A DNA stretch of 64,000 nucleotides from a virus, in the IMG/VR virus record IMGVR_UViG_3300025530_000275, positions 62,101 to 126,100 of that record. One strand, written 5' to 3'. Positions 4,859 to 63,996 of the stretch are shown piece by piece. Each line of letters starts with the position of its first letter. Position 1 is the first letter of the stretch. The notes under the pieces were generated by a model. It saw nothing but the letters and a program-made list of their open reading frames with translations. It searched no databases and had not been told where the DNA came from. The translations under genes and the position numbers were made by a program.

Positions 4859-5048
4859 TTTGTATGAAGAAAAAAAAATAAACCGGTGTAGATATTTACC
4901 TACCGGTTCTAACATATGAATTTAAAATTCCTAATATTTTTGAAGAGCCTCCCATTTTACTTTTGGCAGAAGCTTAATGGAGCACTTCTTACATCAAAAA
5001 AAAATAATCGCCATGGTGTATTACCATGGCGTTATTTATAAGATTAAT

Positions 5049-5468
5049 TTAAAGGGTTACTATCTCATACTCCAGATTTTCTATTGCACCAGTTTCCGTT
5101 ATACAAGTAAAATCTTTTATATCTATTATCATATATTCATTAATAGTAATGGGATCTAATACCCAATATTCTCTATGAATAAGGGCATCTGGTACTCTGT
5201 CCGCTATTTCTTCAGGAGTTAAAATTCTTACATTATACTTTTCAGTATCGAGTATAAATACTTTAAATTTAGAGCCCACAGATGAGATATAATCTTCTAA
5301 TCCTCTTCCCCCATCTGGAATTGATCCTAAACATCCATTTATTGAATCACTAAAGCAGATCCTGGGAGTTATGCTATCTTCTTCATCATCATAAAATGCA
5401 CTATCGGGAATATCCGGAAAGAATTCCCCATCATGATCCAAATTTACTGATACGTGATATAGTATCAT
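5049..5468 (-). CDS. hypothetical protein, possible ADP-ribosyltransferase-like fold
   Basis: LYHVS...PRICFS...EYW arrangement resembles the ART H/S/E core strands. Confidence 0.4.
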   Translation of the reverse strand: MILYHVSVNLDHDGEFFPDIPDSAFYDDEEDSITPRICFSDSINGCLGSIPDGGRGLEDYISSVGSKFKVFILDTEKYNVRILTPEEIADRVPDALIHREYWVLDPITINEYMIIDIKDFTCITETGAIENLEYEIVTL

Positions 5469-5470
5469 TA

Positions 5471-6169
5471 TTATAAGAAATTAACCGAATTATCAATTTT
5501 ATACTTGTCTAAAAACTTTTGAAGGGATATTTTCTCGGTTGTTCCATCATGATATAAGATTTTAAGTATTTTTTCTTCCCCGACGAGAAGATAAAACTTT
5601 ACCAGCATAAAATTTTCGATTGCTTTATTGTAAGCATCCTCTATTGTTAGAGTATACAACAGCTCGTTTATAGAATAAATATAATCTCTTAATCTATCCG
5701 GTAATGTCTCCCAAATGACATTCATGGACTCATGCTCGAATTCATCGGGCAAACAGAATTCATAGTCTCGTTCAAAGATAATAAATTTTATCTTAAGAAG
5801 TTTCTTAAAGGTTTTAATAGGAATTCTTTTACTCAAACCATTTCCAAGATCTACAAGAACAAATGCTTTAGGATATTTAGAAATGATTTTATTTATCTTA
5901 CGACGTTTAATTTTTCCTTTAAACCTGAAAAGCTCCTTAATTCCATCATTTCTATCATCATAAATGATATATGTTTCAGATGATGGATGTTGGAATTTTT
6001 TAGGACGCTTTTTCTTTTCAGGTAAATTCGCTTGATACGCTTCAAGAAGTTCAGCTTCAAGTTTTTTACTAGGTAGTGAACTTTTACCGGGAGTATTTTT
6101 CATTATATTTTCCAGAATTCTTTCGCCAAAAATGTTTGGCACTAACTGTACAGTTGACATACCTACCAT
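5471..6169 (-). CDS. hypothetical protein
   Basis: Long ORF 5471..6187; start uncertain (ATG at 6169 or 6160 follows AGAGGT). Confidence 0.6.
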   Translation of the reverse strand: MVGMSTVQLVPNIFGERILENIMKNTPGKSSLPSKKLEAELLEAYQANLPEKKKRPKKFQHPSSETYIIYDDRNDGIKELFRFKGKIKRRKINKIISKYPKAFVLVDLGNGLSKRIPIKTFKKLLKIKFIIFERDYEFCLPDEFEHESMNVIWETLPDRLRDYIYSINELLYTLTIEDAYNKAIENFMLVKFYLLVGEEKILKILYHDGTTEKISLQKFLDKYKIDNSVNFL

Positions 6170-7139: not shown

Positions 7140-7898
7140 TCACACAGTCACGTCCCTAAAGCGCAGGCGGATGTACTGGATCAGCGCCAGATACTCCTCG
7201 CCGTGGCGGTTGCCGTCGTGTCTGCTCTTGACTGCGGCCTCGAACTCATCCAGCGTGCCGCGGAAGCATCCACGCGTTACCTCGATTTCGCCATCTTTCC
7301 TTGTATATACAGTTATAGTGCCGTTTTCTAAGCCGACAGAGCTGGCCCAGAAAACGTGTTTGATAGATTCGACCATCGCGTCGCCAGATACCCGAGCGTC
7401 GCCAGATACCCGAGCGTCGCCGTATACCCAAGCGTTGCCGGACACTTGAGCGTCTCCGGACACTTGGGTGTCACCGAACACCCGAGCGTCGCCGTATACC
7501 CAAGCGTTGCCGGACACACGAGCGTCTCCGGACACCCTCGCGTTGCCGGACACGCAAGCGTCATCTGACACCCGAGCGTCGCCAGACACCCGAGCGTCGC
7601 CGTATACCCAAGCGTTGCCGGACACCCTCGCGTTGCCGGACACACGAGCGTCTCCGGACACCCTCGCGTTGCCGGACACACGAGCGTCTCCGGACACCCT
7701 CGCGTTGTCGTAGACACAAGCTTGGTCTGACACCCAAGCTTTGCCTACTTGGTCAAGGTTTTTTTCGCTGGCGATCCAGCCGCCGAGATCGCCAACCTTA
7801 ACCCCGATCTCAGGGATGTCCTTGACGGCTTTAATTTGATATAGTGTGATTCCCGACCACGCCTTTTTGTTATCTGTAAGGATGTATTTTTTGGACAT
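7140..7898 (-). CDS. left-handed beta-helix hexapeptide-repeat protein (prophage type), horizontally acquired
   Basis: Tandem (A-R/W-V-S/Y-G-D/N) hexapeptides; N-terminal GDLGGWIASEKNL and C-terminal VTRGCFRGTLDEF; markedly higher GC than flanks; ATG 7898 after GGAAGGAAAG. Confidence 0.85.
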   Translation of the reverse strand: MSKKYILTDNKKAWSGITLYQIKAVKDIPEIGVKVGDLGGWIASEKNLDQVGKAWVSDQACVYDNARVSGDARVSGNARVSGDARVSGNARVSGNAWVYGDARVSGDARVSDDACVSGNARVSGDARVSGNAWVYGDARVFGDTQVSGDAQVSGNAWVYGDARVSGDARVSGDAMVESIKHVFWASSVGLENGTITVYTRKDGEIEVTRGCFRGTLDEFEAAVKSRHDGNRHGEEYLALIQYIRLRFRDVTV

Positions 7899-8008
7899 TT
7901 TCTTTCCTTCCTTTCCGGCTCCATGGTATAATGGAGCCAAATATAGATTTTTGTTTTGCCGCCTTTTTAGGCAATTTTTCTTTTTACAGCTCCGCTTTGA
8001 CCTACGGC

Positions 8009-56064: not shown

Positions 56065-56295
56065 TTATCCATTTATTTCTCTTGCCACTTCTTCAATTAC
56101 TCTGAAACTCCCATCTACATATTCCGCACCTTCAATGGGAAGATAATCAATATTCTCGGCGATTTGTAAAGCCTCATCAATATCCCGAGCCTTGATTCTC
56201 ACATAGTTTCCTACTTCCCAGGTTATCGGAATTGTATATTCCTTCTGTAACCATACTTTGATTTTACTTTTTGCCACCGAACGGCCCTTCCTCAT
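56065..56295 (-). CDS. hypothetical protein
   Basis: 76 aa ORF overlapping the beta-N stop. Confidence 0.55.
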   Translation of the reverse strand: MRKGRSVAKSKIKVWLQKEYTIPITWEVGNYVRIKARDIDEALQIAENIDYLPIEGAEYVDGSFRVIEEVAREING

Positions 56296-58186
56296 TTAGT
56301 TCTATTTTTATAAGCCCATTTTTGTTTCTCACATACGACCCTGGGCTATAATCAGGTCTCGGTCTAGCTGTTATCCTGATAAGATGGAAGTTCCTCTTAA
56401 TTACAATAAACCCTTTAGAATTACGCACATAAGCAGACGAGTCCAAATTTCTTTGAACTTTTATCAGTCCACTAGATGTACGCACATACTCTGGTTTGAC
56501 AATTTGAATGTAACCTTCATCATTCCTAAAATCTCTATACTTCAGATTGAACTTACGTTTATCATGTTCTTCTCTAATTGCCTTATAGTGAGCTTGTATC
56601 ATTCCATAATACTGCTCATTTTCTTTAATTTGCTTAATACGTTTTCTGAGTCTCTTAGCATATGGTCTTTCAATAGACTCAGAATCCCCGAAATATCCGC
56701 CATCATAGATCTTACAGAACGGTGTTAACATACCAGAAATTCCAGGTGAGCTCGATGAAATAGCATTAAGCTCAAATCTTCCAAGATAGCTAGGATAAAT
56801 ATCTCGTTGTTCATCCTTAACCTTATCAGAGGGTAGACCCTGAATCCCTGTGAATGAAAACTTCAAGCCATTTAGCGCTTGAAGATCATTGATATCAATA
56901 TTGTAACGGAATAGAGGAGAAGGTTTCCTCCCTCTGAATAGTGACTTTATCAAAATGTGCTCATCAAATTTGAAGATTCTAGAAAGTTTTTCTTTGTCAT
57001 ACGGCCTCAAATTGAGGGCATAATTGACCTTATCTTTCAAGAATCTACTAAAATGAGCAGCAATATATTCATTGGTCCTTATTCTCTTATTGAGAAGAGA
57101 ATTATTATCCATATTTCTCAGTTCGTTAAACTCCCTCATCATCCAACGCAATACACAATAGATATCTGCTTTATCTTTATAGTCTATTCTCAGAGAATTC
57201 TGAGTTGCAGAATCAAGAACATTTCTAAATGATTTTAGTACATCATATCCTTTATTCAACTGATTTTTTGCAGCGGACGTGAAAAGAGAACCAAGCCTCT
57301 TTACCCATAACTCATTATCATAGATATCCTCAATTTTATTTCTAGTATTGAAGATCTGGATAAGCATTCCGGTAAATGATCTAAAGAACGCATCATCTTC
57401 AAATAAAGTCTTTTCCGCTTCTAGAAGTATATTCGAGTTTACTTTGAAGTAATAGAATAGTTCAGGGTTTTTCACTTCAGTCACTACGTTTAGAAACTTA
57501 TCATAACCAAAGAACTCGATTGTTCCCAATATTCCCTTTTTAGCAGCAAAATAGAAAATAGGATTGAATTTCTTTTTGAATAAATTTACCACGAGATTAC
57601 TAATCCTAAATTCTTTACCGGAATCTACACATATAAGAATAAATCTTTTACGCTTATCTTCTCTACTAAGTCTGAGTTGAATTCTTGACTTTAGAATCAC
57701 CTCACCTTTCCGGTTATAGGTAGCATTATCAACTACCTGGAACATGGCAAGAGTCTTGTTTCCGGAAATCATGAAGTGATATCTATCTATATATTTTGGA
57801 AGAAGGATAGTATTTTCAACTTTTTCGCCACCGACAATATCTACAGTAAATTTTATAGCATCATAGATATCCGGTTGAACCGGAATGAGTTTTTCAATTC
57901 TATTCTTAATAATCTTCCTATTCTTGATATTCCTCAAATTCAGACGAATATCAAGTTTTGAAGGATCTCGAATATATTCAACATCTCTTACAAAGATATC
58001 AGGAAGCATTTCGATAGATTTCAGATCTTCAGCAATAAACTCCCAGATTTGTTTCCCTTTTCTTCTATCAAAGAGATCTTCATTGACACCAGCTTCAGTG
58101 GCCATTCTGTCTGACATCATTGCGACCATTTGGCTCACATAGTTTTTCGCCAATCCTATCTTCCTTCCTTTCCGCTTATAGTACAC
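56264..58186 (-). CDS. rpoB: RNA polymerase beta N-terminal subunit (non-virion type)
   Basis: LLPKY..FMISGNKTLAMFQ, NKRIR, RDIYPSYLGRF...SPGISGML; C-terminal repeat tail. Confidence 0.85.
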   Translation of the reverse strand: MYYKRKGRKIGLAKNYVSQMVAMMSDRMATEAGVNEDLFDRRKGKQIWEFIAEDLKSIEMLPDIFVRDVEYIRDPSKLDIRLNLRNIKNRKIIKNRIEKLIPVQPDIYDAIKFTVDIVGGEKVENTILLPKYIDRYHFMISGNKTLAMFQVVDNATYNRKGEVILKSRIQLRLSREDKRKRFILICVDSGKEFRISNLVVNLFKKKFNPIFYFAAKKGILGTIEFFGYDKFLNVVTEVKNPELFYYFKVNSNILLEAEKTLFEDDAFFRSFTGMLIQIFNTRNKIEDIYDNELWVKRLGSLFTSAAKNQLNKGYDVLKSFRNVLDSATQNSLRIDYKDKADIYCVLRWMMREFNELRNMDNNSLLNKRIRTNEYIAAHFSRFLKDKVNYALNLRPYDKEKLSRIFKFDEHILIKSLFRGRKPSPLFRYNIDINDLQALNGLKFSFTGIQGLPSDKVKDEQRDIYPSYLGRFELNAISSSSPGISGMLTPFCKIYDGGYFGDSESIERPYAKRLRKRIKQIKENEQYYGMIQAHYKAIREEHDKRKFNLKYRDFRNDEGYIQIVKPEYVRTSSGLIKVQRNLDSSAYVRNSKGFIVIKRNFHLIRITARPRPDYSPGSYVRNKNGLIKIELNEEGPFGGKK

Positions 58187-58290: not shown

Positions 58291-58995
58291 TTAAACCAAT
58301 GCTTCGATAAGGCGGTCGTTCTTGATCGTTTGTTTGAATTCTTTGCTGGGAACAAATCCGACTTCCCACTTGTCCTTCTTACGCTCAATCGTATAAGTTC
58401 CCTCTCCGGGAACTTCATACTTCACAACTTCATCCGCCGACTTGCTGTTTGCAAGTACGTGAATGATGGCTGCAATGTGAAGCGCAATGAACAGTTGAGC
58501 CGACGTCTCATCCAGTTCTACGCCACGGTCCGCCTCTGTTTTCTTTTCAACCCATTCGCCTTCCTGGACATCATATTCATCCAGTTTGCAGCAATGGATG
58601 ACCGTATCCAGCAGAAGCTTGCTGTCGATAGAAGAAGCAATGGATTCAATCAGCGACACATTGTTGTACAGCTTATCTTCGAAGCTGTCCAGTTCGCTCA
58701 AGAACTTCTTCTCGTTCGTGAGACTGAACGTCGGATTCAGCGACAGAGACTCGCCGGACTTCCGTGCGACGACTCCATAAGTAAACGGGCCGATAACCAG
58801 CTGTACTTCTTCCCTGGGCTCCTGATCCATCATCAGGTACAGCGTGCGCGGGATTGCATTCGAAATCCCCGTATCAATAATCGCCTGAAGTGCAAGGTCG
58901 ATTTCTGCCTTTTTCGTTTCGCCGTTGATGTTGCGTTCGCAGTGAAACGCTTTCGAAGATACAGAATTTGTTACCTCGATAAGTTTCTTTGCCAT
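58291..58995 (-). CDS. abundant HU/IHF-like DNA-binding protein
   Basis: C-terminal EVPGEGTYTI...VGFVPSKEFKQTI HU-like signature; AGGAGG RBS; high-expression codons; two early motifs upstream. Confidence 0.55.
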   Translation of the reverse strand: MAKKLIEVTNSVSSKAFHCERNINGETKKAEIDLALQAIIDTGISNAIPRTLYLMMDQEPREEVQLVIGPFTYGVVARKSGESLSLNPTFSLTNEKKFLSELDSFEDKLYNNVSLIESIASSIDSKLLLDTVIHCCKLDEYDVQEGEWVEKKTEADRGVELDETSAQLFIALHIAAIIHVLANSKSADEVVKYEVPGEGTYTIERKKDKWEVGFVPSKEFKQTIKNDRLIEALV

Positions 58996-59241
58996 TCTAA
59001 AACTCCTCCTATTAATGAAGTTTTTATTGTAAAGACACACTTAGTATAAACTAATAATGTGTCTTTCACACAATAATAATATATATTTGACAATTACGAC
59101 GACTACAAATAGCTTATAGAAAAAATGCTACTGCATATTACCACCTCTCGCTCGATAATATTGTTTATTAGTCAATACAATAATATATATTTGTCTTTAG
59201 TTTGCTTCAATAACTATAATTTTGAAAAATAAATATAAGTA

Positions 59242-59271
59242 GCCAGAGGGTATCATTTATAACCCTCTGGC
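59242..59271 (-). terminator. intrinsic terminator of the putative ncRNA
   Basis: GCCAGAGGGT/ACCCTCTGGC stem followed by a U-rich tract on the minus strand. Confidence 0.8.
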
Positions 59272-59286
59272 CATGATATATATTAA

Positions 59287-59571
59287 GGACATGACTGCGA
59301 GATGAGCCTGATCATCAAACCCAAATTTATTTTCGCCTACCATTCCTGAAAACCTCTTTCTGAGAGCACAGCAAAATCCTCTTCACTCTCTGCGACGGTT
59401 AATCCAATGCGATAGGATTAACCCAGACAGAAAAATCCGAGGAAATATCGCCGATTACCCCTAATATGATAGTGGGATAATTTGTGACCTCAGTTTTTCA
59501 AAGAGGCCGAGGAATGGACTCGACGATTTCATTAATTCTTGCATAATACGACTCTCTCGCAAATCATTCCC
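59287..59571 (-). ncRNA. putative ~285-nt structured non-coding RNA of unknown family
   Basis: Late promoter placing +1 at G59571; 5'/3' ends pair; nested long-range helices; downstream terminator; no ORF in the track. Confidence 0.7.
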
Positions 59572-59616
59572 AATATATTGTTCATAAATTTCCAATATTT
59601 TGCTTTTGACCCAAAG

Positions 59617-61815
59617 TCAAGAGTATTGACTGATAAACTCTGATAGTAGCATCACAGGGATGCCTTTTTTCCTTGCAATTAATGCTTTCTTACCATCGAG
59701 TCTATCAGGAGTCACTACAAGCAAATCATATTTACTTCCTGTTTCAATAATCTTAAAATTTAATGCTTTGCATATTTTTTCAAACTCAGGATTATTCCTA
59801 AATCCTGACACCAATATTACTTTATCATAATCCTTTTTAGTATCAACACAATTTAGCAGATTCTTCAATTCGACAAATTCTTCATAGGCGTTAATAAGAC
59901 CTTTGGAGAAATCTTTGGCCTTCTTATCAATACCTTTTACCGTCTTCAATTTTTTATAGAGAACATTTTCATCTTTGGATGACATCAACTGCTCTAATTC
60001 TTTTATAGAAATTTTATCGAGAATTTTTTCAGCAGTCTTCGTCCGAAGACCCGGTATTCTCAAAAGATCTATAACTTTTGGATATTCGATAGGTGCCTTT
60101 ATTTTATTTTGAAACTCATTCCAGGCTTTTTCCAAGTTTAGACCTTTGAGAACTTTAGAAAGATCTTTATATCCCATTTTTATAAACTCGATTGCATTGG
60201 ATATGCCTACAATTTCCACCAAGTCATTCGCGATTTCTTCCCCAAAGAAATCGAGATTCAGAATCCGTATTGCTTCCAGGATTCTTCCTACTTTATGACC
60301 AGGACAATCTTCATTGATACATTTTAACATATCTTTAGTTACAATAAGCTCAAAATTACATTTTATGCAATGTGTTGGAAGCATAAGAGGTTCTCCATTC
60401 TTAGCCGGTTTACATGTATCATCTTTATAGATGTATCCCATAACGTCTGCATTGTAGGATACAATAACTTCATCCCCAATATGAGGATTAAGTTCTTTAA
60501 ATCTTGTAATATTGTTAACCGGAGCTTTCTCATATCGAACACCATTAAATTCAATTGGCTCGAATGTTATATTAACTCCGATAAACCCCTGCTTCCCCAT
60601 AGATGGAAGTATCCCAGTGATTTTCGTTCTCTGCATCATTGCATCGAATTTATAGGCAATTTGCCACTTGTTCTTATTACTGGATCTTCCAAGTTCATTC
60701 TTTAAAGTATGGTTAACTATACTTATAACCAATCCATCTATACTATATGGAATCTGAGATCTTTTAGATGAATATTCCTGTACTGTTTTCTCTATCTCAG
60801 AAAGAAGTTCATCAATATTTCCATACAAATAAGTATATTCATATGGGAATTTTTCAGAACTATCAAAAAATACACAGGAGTTTCTCATTCTAATAAAGAT
60901 ATTTTCAAATGTTGCATCGCGATTTTTATCTAGTTTCCCATACAGATCTATAATTCTATCATCTGTAAGTAGCGGAACTAAAGTTACACACTTGTTAATC
61001 TCTATTAATTCATCTTTAGGCGTTTTCGGATTAGAGATACGTTTTAGGGCTGATGCAATTGCCGCCCGTCTTGTAGAGTAATTAATATTCACAATTTCAC
61101 TGAGTCTTTTTCTTCCATACTCAGTCACAATTGCTTCATATTGAATTCCCACAGTTTTAGGAAGTAATACAGTGTCAATCCAACGTATAGGATTTCTTCC
61201 AATCAAAATATTGGAGAGATCTACACCCTTATTTTCTTCAAAATTACCCCTGGTTACTGCCTTTACAGGGGTCAAAATATTTTCATTATTTCTAAACGTT
61301 ATAGTTACGGATGTACCGTCGAACTTAGGGGCTATAATAATCCCAAGTTTCTTTCTAGAAGTTTCTTTCATTATTTTTCTTAACCATTTTTCCACAGAGG
61401 GCTTATCGCTAACATTATAAACAGTATAAGCCTTATCCAAAGTACCAGCAAGTTCAGGGAAATCCTGCTCAGTACTTCTCATACCAGCTGGGATGAATGA
61501 TTGAAACGGCTCTTTCCCATCATTGAGATTTTTATATATCTCAATAAGCCTATCATACATATCATCCGGCATCAATCTATACAGAATTCCACTCATGTAC
61601 TGATTTAGCTCATAAAGCGACTTAGATACTTTCAAGATATTCTCTAAGCCCTTTAATTCATCCACGGTTATAGATTCATCGGGTTTGAAAACTATTTCAT
61701 GTAGAGTCAGCACGATCTCAGGATCTTGTAATCCTACAGCCGCTGAAGCATACTGTCCATTATCAATGTAGTTTAGTAGTCGTCCTGTTATCTTACTGAA
61801 TTTAGCCATCCTCAT
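59617..61815 (-). CDS. ligA: NAD-dependent DNA ligase
   Basis: PKFDG, TRGN, DGLVI, WQIAYKF, CxxC...C..C Zn finger, HhH and BRCT-like C-terminus. Confidence 0.92.
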   Translation of the reverse strand: MRMAKFSKITGRLLNYIDNGQYASAAVGLQDPEIVLTLHEIVFKPDESITVDELKGLENILKVSKSLYELNQYMSGILYRLMPDDMYDRLIEIYKNLNDGKEPFQSFIPAGMRSTEQDFPELAGTLDKAYTVYNVSDKPSVEKWLRKIMKETSRKKLGIIIAPKFDGTSVTITFRNNENILTPVKAVTRGNFEENKGVDLSNILIGRNPIRWIDTVLLPKTVGIQYEAIVTEYGRKRLSEIVNINYSTRRAAIASALKRISNPKTPKDELIEINKCVTLVPLLTDDRIIDLYGKLDKNRDATFENIFIRMRNSCVFFDSSEKFPYEYTYLYGNIDELLSEIEKTVQEYSSKRSQIPYSIDGLVISIVNHTLKNELGRSSNKNKWQIAYKFDAMMQRTKITGILPSMGKQGFIGVNITFEPIEFNGVRYEKAPVNNITRFKELNPHIGDEVIVSYNADVMGYIYKDDTCKPAKNGEPLMLPTHCIKCNFELIVTKDMLKCINEDCPGHKVGRILEAIRILNLDFFGEEIANDLVEIVGISNAIEFIKMGYKDLSKVLKGLNLEKAWNEFQNKIKAPIEYPKVIDLLRIPGLRTKTAEKILDKISIKELEQLMSSKDENVLYKKLKTVKGIDKKAKDFSKGLINAYEEFVELKNLLNCVDTKKDYDKVILVSGFRNNPEFEKICKALNFKIIETGSKYDLLVVTPDRLDGKKALIARKKGIPVMLLSEFISQYS

Positions 61816-61908: not shown

Positions 61909-63996
61909 TTATCGTCTCAGTTTATCCCATCCATCAAAGAATATTTTTATAGATTTCTTATCCATACTTTTAATTTCATCCAAAAGAATATCTCTAACCT
62001 CTTCATCAGATCCTCCATATTCAAACTCTAGGGCCATACCACATACCATAAATGTAGCATTAAATAGATCAACTACCCTAGATTTTGGATTCTTCATCTC
62101 TATACGAAGATCTTCGGAGAAAATATTTGTATGAAGAAGTTGAGAAAATTCACGCCTTCCAGTTACAGAAGTACAATAAAGTCTTGTAAAGAAATTGATG
62201 GCCGCAGGATCGTTACAGAGATTCAAGATATCCATCTCCATATTACCAATCCTGATAGCTTGGTTATTAAACAATGCTGTACCTCTGCTATATGCATGAG
62301 ATTTAATAGGCAAAAATGTTCTAGGATTAATTGTACCTTTAGATCTTACAGAGAATTTCGTTATTGGCTCATGTTTAAGTCTGTAGATATACGTATCAGA
62401 CATAATCATCTTACGTTGAATATTATAAACCCCTCCGGATTTATCCATAAACGTAAACCTTTTCTTCTTAGGTTCAAATCTCTCTATAAGTTTTGAATAG
62501 TTCTTAAAGCTAATAGACATACTTGGGGGTTGGAATATAACAAATTCTTTAGTAATTTGTGATAGGAATTCTTCCTTCTCCTCTTTATCGAGGGATTTAT
62601 AGAACTCCCTTACCATTTTTTCTTGGTCGGGGTTACATATCGACAAGAAATCCAGAAGTGCTTCGAATTTCTTTTTCTTAGGAGCATCCCCTTCCAGAAT
62701 CTGATCCACAATCCAGTTCAATTCAAGTTCATATAGCTGAGATGGATTCAGACGTCCAATGACGCTCAGAGCACTAAAGATGACTTCTACATATTCACCA
62801 TCTTCACTTCTTGGCATGTATTTTTCTGGAACTATCTCGGAAACAACACCTTTATTCCCATGGCGTCCAACAAGTTTTGTTCCGACTACAGCCTTTTTCT
62901 CATTAACTACAGTTATATAGATGATTATGTCATCAAAAATCGATCCATCATCATCCCACTTGACATGCTTCCCGATGCTCATCACATCTTTAGCGCGAGA
63001 ATATGTTATACCAATTTGATCCGAATATTCATTTTCCGGGTTCCCAACAATTTCTTCAAGTGTTTCTTTAAGCTCGCGCCAATAATTGTTAATCAACTTC
63101 ATATATTTCAAAATTTGGTGATTGACCTTATCAGTGGAAATTTCATCAATTGGTATATTAGAATAAATATCAATATCTACTACAGTTCCTTCTGCATAAT
63201 ATAGAGTATCACCAAACATCTCTTTTCTAAGATTTTTACTTTTTAGCATATATTGTGCGTTATTATAATCAATTCTCCGTCTCCCACACAATACTTTATT
63301 TCTAACTTCCTCTCCAATATCCGGAAATGCCTTATAGACTTCACTATTTCCGTAAAGATTGAGTAGGATATCGTTAGTATTCTTTGGGATCTTGTAAGTA
63401 TTTACGTTCGTGACTTTCAATCTTTTTGCAAGTTTGTCAGAAATCCTGAATGCGTCCTCAACAATTGCTGGATCTACCATATATACGGTCTTTGCATTTA
63501 TACCTAAGCGATAGTTCATATTATCATCATAGGAGCGGGATCTGTATAGGATCTCCCCCGATTTTACTTTATCTCCAACTTTCTTAGAATCAATAATTTT
63601 ATTATTCATTTTTACACCAGTTGCTTCTGCAAAAGCTTCAACTTCATTCCTAAATACAATATCGTAATAATTTTTGCCAGCTTCTTTAAGAATCAAAGCA
63701 TAAACAAAATCATTGTCAAATTTTCTAATCTTCTTTACAACTTCAAAATTTTTATCAGATCTATAGTAGGAAGTCGACCTATCTCCAAACAATTTCTCAT
63801 ATCCAGTCACGATTCTCGGAATTTCCGGATTTTCAAGATTTTTAGATTGTGCAATCTGTTGGAAGATCAGAGCCGCCCGAGAAGAGTTTACTTTATTCCC
63901 AATCGGTATAAATAAACCGCTTCCGAGAGCGTGGTCAATATTTTTAATCTCACTAGCTATTCTATCAAGTTCTTCCATTTGTTCTGGTTGTAACAT
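61909..63996 (-). CDS. rpoB: RNA polymerase beta C-terminal subunit
   Basis: NSSRA, EDAFRIS, GTKLVGRHGNKGVV, GRLNPSQ, RLKH, IRIGNME; the start may lie beyond the window edge. Confidence 0.92.
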   Translation of the reverse strand: MLQPEQMEELDRIASEIKNIDHALGSGLFIPIGNKVNSSRAALIFQQIAQSKNLENPEIPRIVTGYEKLFGDRSTSYYRSDKNFEVVKKIRKFDNDFVYALILKEAGKNYYDIVFRNEVEAFAEATGVKMNNKIIDSKKVGDKVKSGEILYRSRSYDDNMNYRLGINAKTVYMVDPAIVEDAFRISDKLAKRLKVTNVNTYKIPKNTNDILLNLYGNSEVYKAFPDIGEEVRNKVLCGRRRIDYNNAQYMLKSKNLRKEMFGDTLYYAEGTVVDIDIYSNIPIDEISTDKVNHQILKYMKLINNYWRELKETLEEIVGNPENEYSDQIGITYSRAKDVMSIGKHVKWDDDGSIFDDIIIYITVVNEKKAVVGTKLVGRHGNKGVVSEIVPEKYMPRSEDGEYVEVIFSALSVIGRLNPSQLYELELNWIVDQILEGDAPKKKKFEALLDFLSICNPDQEKMVREFYKSLDKEEKEEFLSQITKEFVIFQPPSMSISFKNYSKLIERFEPKKKRFTFMDKSGGVYNIQRKMIMSDTYIYRLKHEPITKFSVRSKGTINPRTFLPIKSHAYSRGTALFNNQAIRIGNMEMDILNLCNDPAAINFFTRLYCTSVTGRREFSQLLHTNIFSEDLRIEMKNPKSRVVDLFNATFMVCGMALEFEYGGSDEEVRDILLDEIKSMDKKSIKIFFDGWDKLRR

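Follow-up and report, generated by a model that had tools for sequence, protein, structure and literature searches.

A structured non-coding RNA of a family absent from Rfam, encoded in the non-virion RNA polymerase gene cluster of AR9-like giant phages

Introduction

Giant phages of the AR9 type carry a multisubunit, sigma-less RNA polymerase of their own, and the question raised by the present locus is whether the DNA behind the ligase gene in the cluster encoding such a polymerase specifies an RNA of its own and, if so, of what kind. The window, a stretch of 64,000 nucleotides, is part of a 206,953-bp IMG/VR virus record. On its minus strand the candidate RNA gene lies between ligA (59617-61815), which Pfam and PHROG identify as an NAD-dependent DNA ligase, and a gene for a 234-aa protein (58291-58995). 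The preliminary description had drawn attention to a raised GC content and to a position between RNA polymerase subunit genes, and both observations hold. The region has a GC content of 0.43, whereas the genome lies at about 0.34 and the next intergenic stretch at 0.26-0.30. An ORF with RNAP beta domain 6 (61909-63996; Pfam, PHROG) lies upstream of ligA, and a 640-aa ORF (56264-58186, minus) lies downstream of the 234-aa gene. The latter has no Pfam domain and bears the PHROG label ‘polymerase’, and its database relatives are solely nvRNAP beta/beta’ pieces of Staphylococcus and Bacillus jumbo phages, with 24-27% identity to those of Staphylococcus jumbo phages; this homology therefore places the ncRNA gene within the nvRNAP gene cluster. 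The nearest cultured relatives of the ligase belong to the AR9/PBS1/BpSp group (about 25-27% identity). The genome contains 20 exact copies of the AR9-type early promoter AAATATATATTAT, and thus an AR9-like transcription system is in use.

To our knowledge, almost no phage ncRNA has comparative structural support. By 2021, 21 phage ncRNAs had been described (PMC8545117). Here we describe a free-standing RNA of ~290 nt, supported by covariation and kept by a clade of AR9-like giant phages inside the gene cluster of their sigma-less RNA polymerase.

Relatives of the locus

A protein search with the ligase yielded 14 proteins with 43-99% identity, and their contigs were collected together with IMG/VR and JGI metagenome loci. 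A gene-free stretch follows ligA in every relative, in L011 and L027 after one inserted ORF, and at this same place all 14 metagenomic relatives carry a rod of 250-315 nt. The habitats of the clade are digesters, bioreactors, soil and gut. In the window and the 14 relatives alike (15/15 loci), the predicted transcript begins with five bases that pair with a site 250-315 nt further on, and a hairpin comes after that site. Exactly two hairpin tips, those of the rod and of one side hairpin, are present in 12 of the 15 folds, and fold z-scores across the loci range from -7.4 to -2.0, with the exception of L021 at -0.6.

Covariance models R1 and R2 gave strong matches to the window, L002, L005, L006 and L018, and matched L007 at E = 4e-5 and L008 at E = 8e-4. 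A search with R2 found a single copy in the phage’s own genome. The eight loci of groups B and C are linked to the RNA of the window by position, promoter, size and shape alone. With the filters off, R2 did not find the rods of L009, L010, L012, L013, L014, L021 and L027, whose tie is therefore one of position, promoter and shape only, and it reached L011 only at E = 1. Alignment of groups B and C by MAFFT and RNAalifold gave merely fragments of structure. In AR9 and BpSp, ligA is followed by no such gap, and R2 finds nothing above noise (E = 0.33). A blastn search of the region against 50,697 GenBank phage records matched nothing, and an exact 24-base core pattern occurred in IMG/VR in the L002 relative alone.

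Structure and covariation of the RNA

The minimum free energy of the RNA strand (59571-59286; nt 1-286) is -109.3/-110.8 kcal/mol, far better than that of dinucleotide shuffles (-74.9 +/- 4.5 kcal/mol; z = -7.65; as good in 0 of 200), a comparison that the preliminary description had named as a possible refutation. The plus strand folds 32 kcal/mol weaker, and therefore the minus strand is taken as the RNA strand; an asymmetry of this size is expected if G-U pairs matter. The basal helices first described, GGGAAUGAUU.GCGAGAGAG/CUCAUCUCGC.AGUCAUGUCC, UCGUC/GGCGA, CCAUUCCU/AGGAAUGG and GGCCUCUUU/AAAGAGGUU, are all present in this fold, as are the two hairpins AUUAUCCC/GGGGUAAU and GGUUAAUCC/GGAUUAACC. 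The features of the locus are collected in Table 1.

Table 1 Features of the ncRNA gene and of the adjoining promoters (window coordinates).
Feature	Position	Strand	Remarks
AR9-type late promoter AACAATATATT	59572-59582	minus	exact match; AACA at -11 to -8, T at -1
ncRNA body, nt 1-286	59286-59571	minus	imperfect rod with paired termini, about 101 bp, two hairpin tips
Basal rod, 5’ strand, nt 1-72	59500-59571	minus	pairs with 59286-59359
UGAAAAA segment	59494-59500	minus	pairing of the basal rod reaches to U72; the GAAAAA after it is an unpaired bulge
Junction helix, 5’ side CUGAGGUCAC	59484-59493	minus	partner strand GUGCUCUCAG (59360-59369)
Side hairpin AUUAUCCC-(12-nt loop)-GGGGUAAU	59454-59481	minus	5’ strand of the three-way junction
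Apical arm: GGCGA/UUGCU, CCUC/GAGG, GGAU/UGAA internal loop, UUUUCUGU/GCAGAGAG, tip hairpin	59371-59452	minus	helices 89-96% paired
Tip hairpin GGUUAAUCC-(9 nt)-GGAUUAACC	59397-59423	minus	part of the apical arm
Basal rod, 3’ strand, nt 213-286	59286-59359	minus	MFE fold and alignments
Intrinsic-terminator-like hairpin and U-rich tail	59225-59272	minus	local fold -23 kcal/mol
Early promoter 1, ahead of the 234-aa gene	59192-59180	minus	predicted +1 at 59173
Early promoter 2, ahead of the 234-aa gene	59088-59076	minus	predicted +1 at 59069

Four members were used to build a covariance model of the 194-nt apical domain, and this model recovers seven full-length members (the window, L002, L005, L006, L018, L007 and L008), which are the alignable ones. 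Homologs near ligA and their covariation had been proposed as a check on the gene; 14 related loci were found, and compensatory changes are seen in the seven-member apical alignment. In this domain 93.4% of cells are paired and 47 of the 64 pairs are changed on both sides, counts that come from an alignment fitted to the structure of the model and that were reached by 0 of 500 shuffles. When the 3’ partners were slid by 1-3 columns, pairing fell to 43-49%, and 14-17 pairs were changed on both sides. As the apical alignment was fitted to structure, pairwise structure-blind alignments were added, and over the whole rod these gave 10-19 pairs changed on both sides, some of them deep in the basal rod (6-280, 10-276, 13-274, 38-245, 46-239 and 48-237). 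Their slid controls gave 3-10 such pairs in 17 of 20 cases, and 17 at one slide of L027/L010. The structure-blind test includes two pairs from the diverged groups that are beyond the reach of the model, L010/L027 and L009/L012.

The same comparison decides the architecture of the cap. The four-armed cap first described is rejected, as a nested rod with just one side hairpin agrees better with the covariation: over the seven homologs the proposed cap helix GAAAAACUGAGG/CCUCGGAUUUUUC has 73.5% of cells paired and two pairs changed on both sides, and GAGAGUG/UGCUCUC has 66% and one such pair, against 93-96% of cells paired, with covariation, in the competing nested helices CUGAGG.CAC/GUG.CUCUCAG, GGCGA/UUGCU, CCUC/GAGG and UUUUCUGU/GCAGAGAG. 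The supported anatomy begins with a basal rod and continues past the unpaired UGAAAA bulge into a three-way junction, from which an 8-bp side hairpin and an apical arm extend. The junction helix is 93.4% paired, with changes on both sides at 8 of 11 pairs; in L005, for instance, CUAAAAAC paired with GGUUUUUAG replaces the CUGAGG.CAC/GUG.CUCUCAG of the window. The side hairpin is 98% paired, with changes on both sides at seven of its eight pairs.

Sequence is conserved beyond pairing at UGAAAA, which is invariant in the seven alignable members, and at CUCGGAUUUUUC, GUGAAGAG and UUGCUG, and this conservation suggests specific recognition. The most conserved bases are those of the junction, none of them forming a single-stranded seed, and the remainder of the rod drifts. 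The GGAU/UGAA internal loop of the apical arm is conserved; the tip loop (9-12 nt) and the side loop vary among relatives. In all members the longest uninterrupted helix is 7-15 bp. The AU-rich weak centre first described, taken as a bubble of the 6S kind, is not supported by the fold, where the largest unpaired element on the rod axis is the 6-nt A-rich bulge beside the three-way junction.

A scan of fold energy in 300-nt windows on a 150-nt grid covered the first 144.6 kb of the genome, with a grid that splits the ncRNA. Its strongest outlier was an island of GC 0.63 at 7140-7940 on the minus strand, in which several frames are open owing to a repeat. This island was rejected as an RNA gene, as it encodes a 266-aa hexapeptide-type repeat protein (GDARVSGNARVS...).

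Promoter, terminator and transcription

The preliminary description had assigned the RNA a late promoter of its own, with the start on the first paired G, and a terminator shortly 3’ of the rod, and both assignments are upheld. The late promoter consensus of AR9 is AACA-(6N)-T-A/G, and transcription starts at its last base (PMC5312081). The element AACAATATATT (59582-59572) fits this consensus, and the predicted +1 is therefore G59571, the first paired base of the closing helix. AACA-N6-Y-R ends at the first paired base of the rod in 15/15 syntenic loci, and upstream of the RNA, where the flanks have diverged, AACA (-11 to -8) and the -1 pyrimidine (T in 14 loci, C in L005) are the sole positions kept in all 15. 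An AACA-type late motif is expected by chance about 0.5 times per kb per strand, and late timing is a reading of the motif; by this motif the ncRNA would be a late transcription unit of the AR9 type, with a predicted site of initiation.

The terminator begins 14 nt past the last paired base of the rod and consists of a GC-rich 12-bp stem (59272-59241) with a loop of 10 nt, owing to which a simple terminator scan missed it, and a U-rich tail (59240-59225). Hairpins with U-runs are also found 3’ of the rod in L002, L005, L006 and L018; a hairpin follows the end of the rod in all 14 relatives and is terminator-like wherever inspected. The linker between rod and terminator (59273-59286, minus) opens, in the five closest members, with a conserved (U)(U/C)AAUAU. 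The linker of the window reads UUAAUAUAUAUCAU, two mismatches from the early-promoter core, and its motif could be a processing site or a chance AT-rich sequence.

Alternatively, the rod might not be a separate gene and might instead belong to the ligA transcript, as a cis-acting 3’ element such as a stabiliser or a signal for processing. In the window the ligA stop lies 35 nt from the rod with no terminator between them, and therefore read-through from ligA would include the ncRNA element too and would end at the same terminator. The relatives speak for a separate unit: the promoter motif stands exactly at the first base of the rod in 15/15 loci; in L005 (5248-5440), and likewise in L015 and L016, the RNA promoter is set apart from ligA by a terminator hairpin and an AT-rich spacer of about 190 nt; and L011 and L027 have one more ORF (94 aa; about 180 aa with repeats) between ligA and the RNA. 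By sequence, the RNA unit shifts as one block together with its promoter. In addition, the RNA-library contigs on the rod stop short of ligA, and 290 nt with a sequence-conserved junction far exceeds what a stabiliser needs. We therefore judge a ligA element improbable.

Four metatranscriptome assemblies hold parts of the region, and three of them have a short contig wholly inside the ncRNA gene (59322-59511, 59291-59552 and 59272-59543). The next gene is covered by separate contigs, and no contig bridges the RNA to ligA or to the next gene. In RNA library X16 the neighbouring genes are covered and the ncRNA has no contig; contig depth cannot rank expression. As contigs show neither strand, ends nor abundance, and DNA carry-over in RNA libraries is possible, this transcript evidence is supportive, not decisive. 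No ORF is conserved in position within the ncRNA across the 15 members, and 5 of the 15 have no ATG-initiated ORF of at least 15 aa, in agreement with the non-coding character proposed earlier.

The adjacent 234-aa protein

The gene downstream of the RNA encodes a clade-specific protein family (window 58291-58995, minus; L002:6729-7436; L006:4345-4932 and 5023-5727, among others), which is present in relatives as one or two tandem paralogs, with a decayed copy in L005/L015. The GC content of the gene is about 0.50, against 0.34 for the genome. The 234-aa protein has no match in Pfam, PHROG, PDB sequences or GenBank phages, no usable match in the ESM Atlas and no Foldseek match in the PDB at E <= 0.001. 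Two tandem exact AR9-type early promoters, AAATATATATTAT-(6N)-G, lie on the minus strand between the RNA terminator and the 234-aa gene (Table 1). The transcript from the second of these would open with a hairpin, GUGAAAGACACA...UGUGUCUUUAC (about 59069-59029), which is kept in L002.

One way in which the RNA might act is as the partner of this protein, or of its tandem paralogs, in a ribonucleoprotein loosely like that of HBsu and scRNA. The family directly follows the RNA in every relative read downstream (13/14 loci; the contig of L011 ends first and L027 was not read that far), and like the RNA the protein has no homolog among 50,697 GenBank phage records. Its AlphaFold model has a pLDDT of 90.9; the closest nucleic-acid binder to this model is single-chain IHF (Z 7.3, rmsd 2.9 over 120 aa), and the halves of the model match HU/IHF at Z 3.5-3.9. 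The modelled fold suggests that the protein may be a pseudo-dimeric HU/IHF-like nucleic-acid binder, and RNA binding is known for proteins of the HU family: the reference list of PMC4231752 includes Nakamura 1999 for HBsu with scRNA and Macvanin 2012 for HU with ncRNAs. However, the fold match is middling by the scale of the tool, unrelated microtubule-inner proteins score equally, and a family at the sequence level is absent. Moreover, the protein gene has two early promoters and the RNA a late one, and therefore the two belong to different temporal classes, and adjacency in one conserved module is weak evidence. A pairing of the RNA with this protein is thus, in our judgement, distinctly unlikely.

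Discussion

The results allow us to conclude with high confidence that the locus contains a real, independent gene for a structured ncRNA of a new family. Rfam 15 does not contain this family, of which the ncRNA is the founding example, and ‘new’ here denotes a new RNA family, not a proven new mechanism. The predicted start and stop of the RNA are clean, and its conserved domain is defined.

As to its function, the paired termini, the short interrupted helices and the conservation of the junction beyond pairing favour a protein-binding decoy or scaffold. We propose a series of steps, in which the phage’s sigma-less non-virion RNAP would transcribe the ncRNA late in infection, the paired termini and the helices interrupted every 15 bp or less would guard it against exonucleases and RNase III, a protein would dock on the conserved domain of junction and apical arm, and the RNA would act late as a decoy or scaffold in a ribonucleoprotein, without base-pairing to mRNA. 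We regard the joint claim, an independent gene for a stable ncRNA of ~290 nt together with a protein-binding mode, as evenly balanced; the protein-binding mode itself is a tentative candidate, to which we give somewhat less than even weight. By gene neighbourhood only, the nvRNAP and the adjacent 234-aa protein are the candidate partners. If the partner is the phage polymerase or a host factor, the RNA would represent a new viral use of RNA in host takeover or in late-stage control.

A different mode would be that of a base-pairing regulator, or of a precursor cut by RNase III or another nuclease into small RNAs directed against host or phage mRNAs. Dicing of a long hairpin is conceivable, and the tip and side loops are variable among relatives, as target-specific seeds might be. 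However, helices interrupted every 7-15 bp are poor RNase III substrates, and the phage genome has no genes for RNase III or a dsRBD protein. The most conserved bases lie in the junction and not in a single-stranded seed, and in a search that covered the phage genome alone, no sites complementary to the loops and conserved strands were found. We consider such a mode quite improbable and retain the protein-binding decoy or scaffold as the preferred reading.

A virion or packaging RNA had been listed early on as an alternative, and the phi29 pRNA would be its model. The pRNA combines a helix of paired termini with a junction bearing two loops, and the present RNA superficially resembles this design. 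The late promoter is of the class that AR9 uses for virion components (PMC5312081). Nevertheless, the pRNA model (RF00044) has no match, inspection of the sequence showed no complementarity between the side loop ACUAUCAUAUUA and the tip loop UAUCGCAUU, and the gene lies in the transcription and replication module, away from the terminase and portal genes. A virion or packaging role of the phi29 type is accordingly highly improbable.

The position of the gene suggests a further alternative, a regulator like 6S or Ms1, in which the rod would bind the phage nvRNAP or vRNAP, or the host RNAP, so as to sequester or escort the enzyme during late infection. In its favour, the gene is located within the nvRNAP cluster (between the 61909-63996 beta piece and the 56264-58186 ORF), its promoter motif would imply transcription by the same nvRNAP, and its rod shape and size of ~300 nt are like those of Ms1, a binder of the sigma-free RNAP core (PMC4191392). 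On the other hand, the central single-stranded bubble that both 6S and Ms1 need is absent, the rod axis having nothing larger than the 6-nt bulge, and the 6S model is without score even at E <= 10. The promoter-mimicking UGUU, the RNA equivalent of the template-strand promoter element of AR9, is absent from 6 of the 15 members, and YA-N6-UGUU is not conserved. Furthermore, AR9 and BpSp, with the same polymerases, have no such gene after ligA. Binding of RNAP would be argued from gene neighbourhood and analogy only, and we think a regulator of this type unlikely. A more specific form, in which the ncRNA would be a self-made feedback regulator of the nvRNAP, produced late by this polymerase and binding the nvRNAP or packaging-bound vRNAP through the A-bulge and the three-way junction in place of a bubble of the 6S type, is likewise unlikely; if true, it would be the first viral counterpart of 6S/Ms1, by a different recognition principle.

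Comparison with known RNAs

None of the 4227 families of Rfam 15 reaches its gathering score in the window or in the 14 related loci, as the preliminary description had expected of a covariance search. At E <= 10, the region 58900-59900 gave nothing relevant, the 6S, SRP and pRNA models all being without score. ARAGORN found no tRNA or tmRNA gene in the window, consistent with the absence of such signatures noted earlier. The large ornate RNAs (GOLLD, ROOL, HEARO, OLE and raiA), known ribozymes and introns had no covariance match in the window or the 14 loci. A retron msr-msd RNA was ruled out, as the 207-kb genome has no RVT_1 match, and so was a Y RNA/YrlA, as neither a TROVE (Ro60/Rsr) match in the genome nor an Rfam match was found. 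We found no description of this RNA in the literature.

The earlier reading as a new phage ncRNA therefore stands, with no Rfam match and with its own promoter and terminator; the 6S-like decoy suggested with it is not supported by the anatomy, from which the bubble is absent. 6S RNA (SsrS, RF00013) is likewise a rod-like, stable ncRNA with paired termini, and the phage RNA could in principle titrate polymerase in the same way. 6S RNA, however, is about 185 nt long, and its large central bubble imitates an open promoter and serves as template for pRNA, whereas the phage rod is free of a bubble. As 6S reached neither the gathering score in the window and the 14 loci nor E <= 10 in 58900-59900, it was rejected as an identity.

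Ms1 of Actinobacteria binds the sigma-free RNAP core, needs its central bubble for this and has two short hairpins near its ends (PMC4191392). Like the phage RNA, it is a free-standing gene product of about 300 nt with a long double-stranded hairpin, whose sequence drifts while shape and synteny persist, and the phage nvRNAP is likewise a sigma-less multisubunit enzyme. The phage RNA differs in its blunt paired ends, its A-rich bulge of 6 nt and the single side hairpin of its three-way junction; bubble and end-proximal hairpins are absent from it, and the sequences are unrelated.

The large SRP RNA of Bacillus subtilis, scRNA, is with HBsu another point of comparison, as a Bacillota rod of roughly 270 nt that binds an HU-family protein, and a gene for a protein of HU/IHF-like fold may adjoin the phage RNA. 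An SRP-like scaffold, one of the alternatives first named, is nevertheless contradicted by the lack of any match to the SRP model even at E <= 10 and by the absence of a domain IV tip: the phage RNA has a variable tip loop of 9-12 nt, compared with a GNRA tetraloop and domain IV loops in SRP RNA, and its ends are simply paired, with no Alu domain.

Among viruses, adenovirus VA RNA I is an abundant late RNA encoded by the virus, with a terminal stem, a central junction domain and an apical stem, which serves as a protein decoy and does not act through base pairing. It belongs to a eukaryotic virus, is about 160 nt long, is made by Pol III and targets PKR. The likeness would be one of design alone, a counterpart of PKR being absent here. 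Nearer to the present phages, the jumbo phage phiKZ produces ncRNAs of ~100 nt and ~180 nt that are derived from UTRs (PMC8545117). These too are non-coding transcripts of a phage with its own multisubunit RNAPs, but they are short and UTR-derived, whereas the RNA described here is ~290 nt long, has a promoter and a terminator of its own, and is supported by covariation across its clade.
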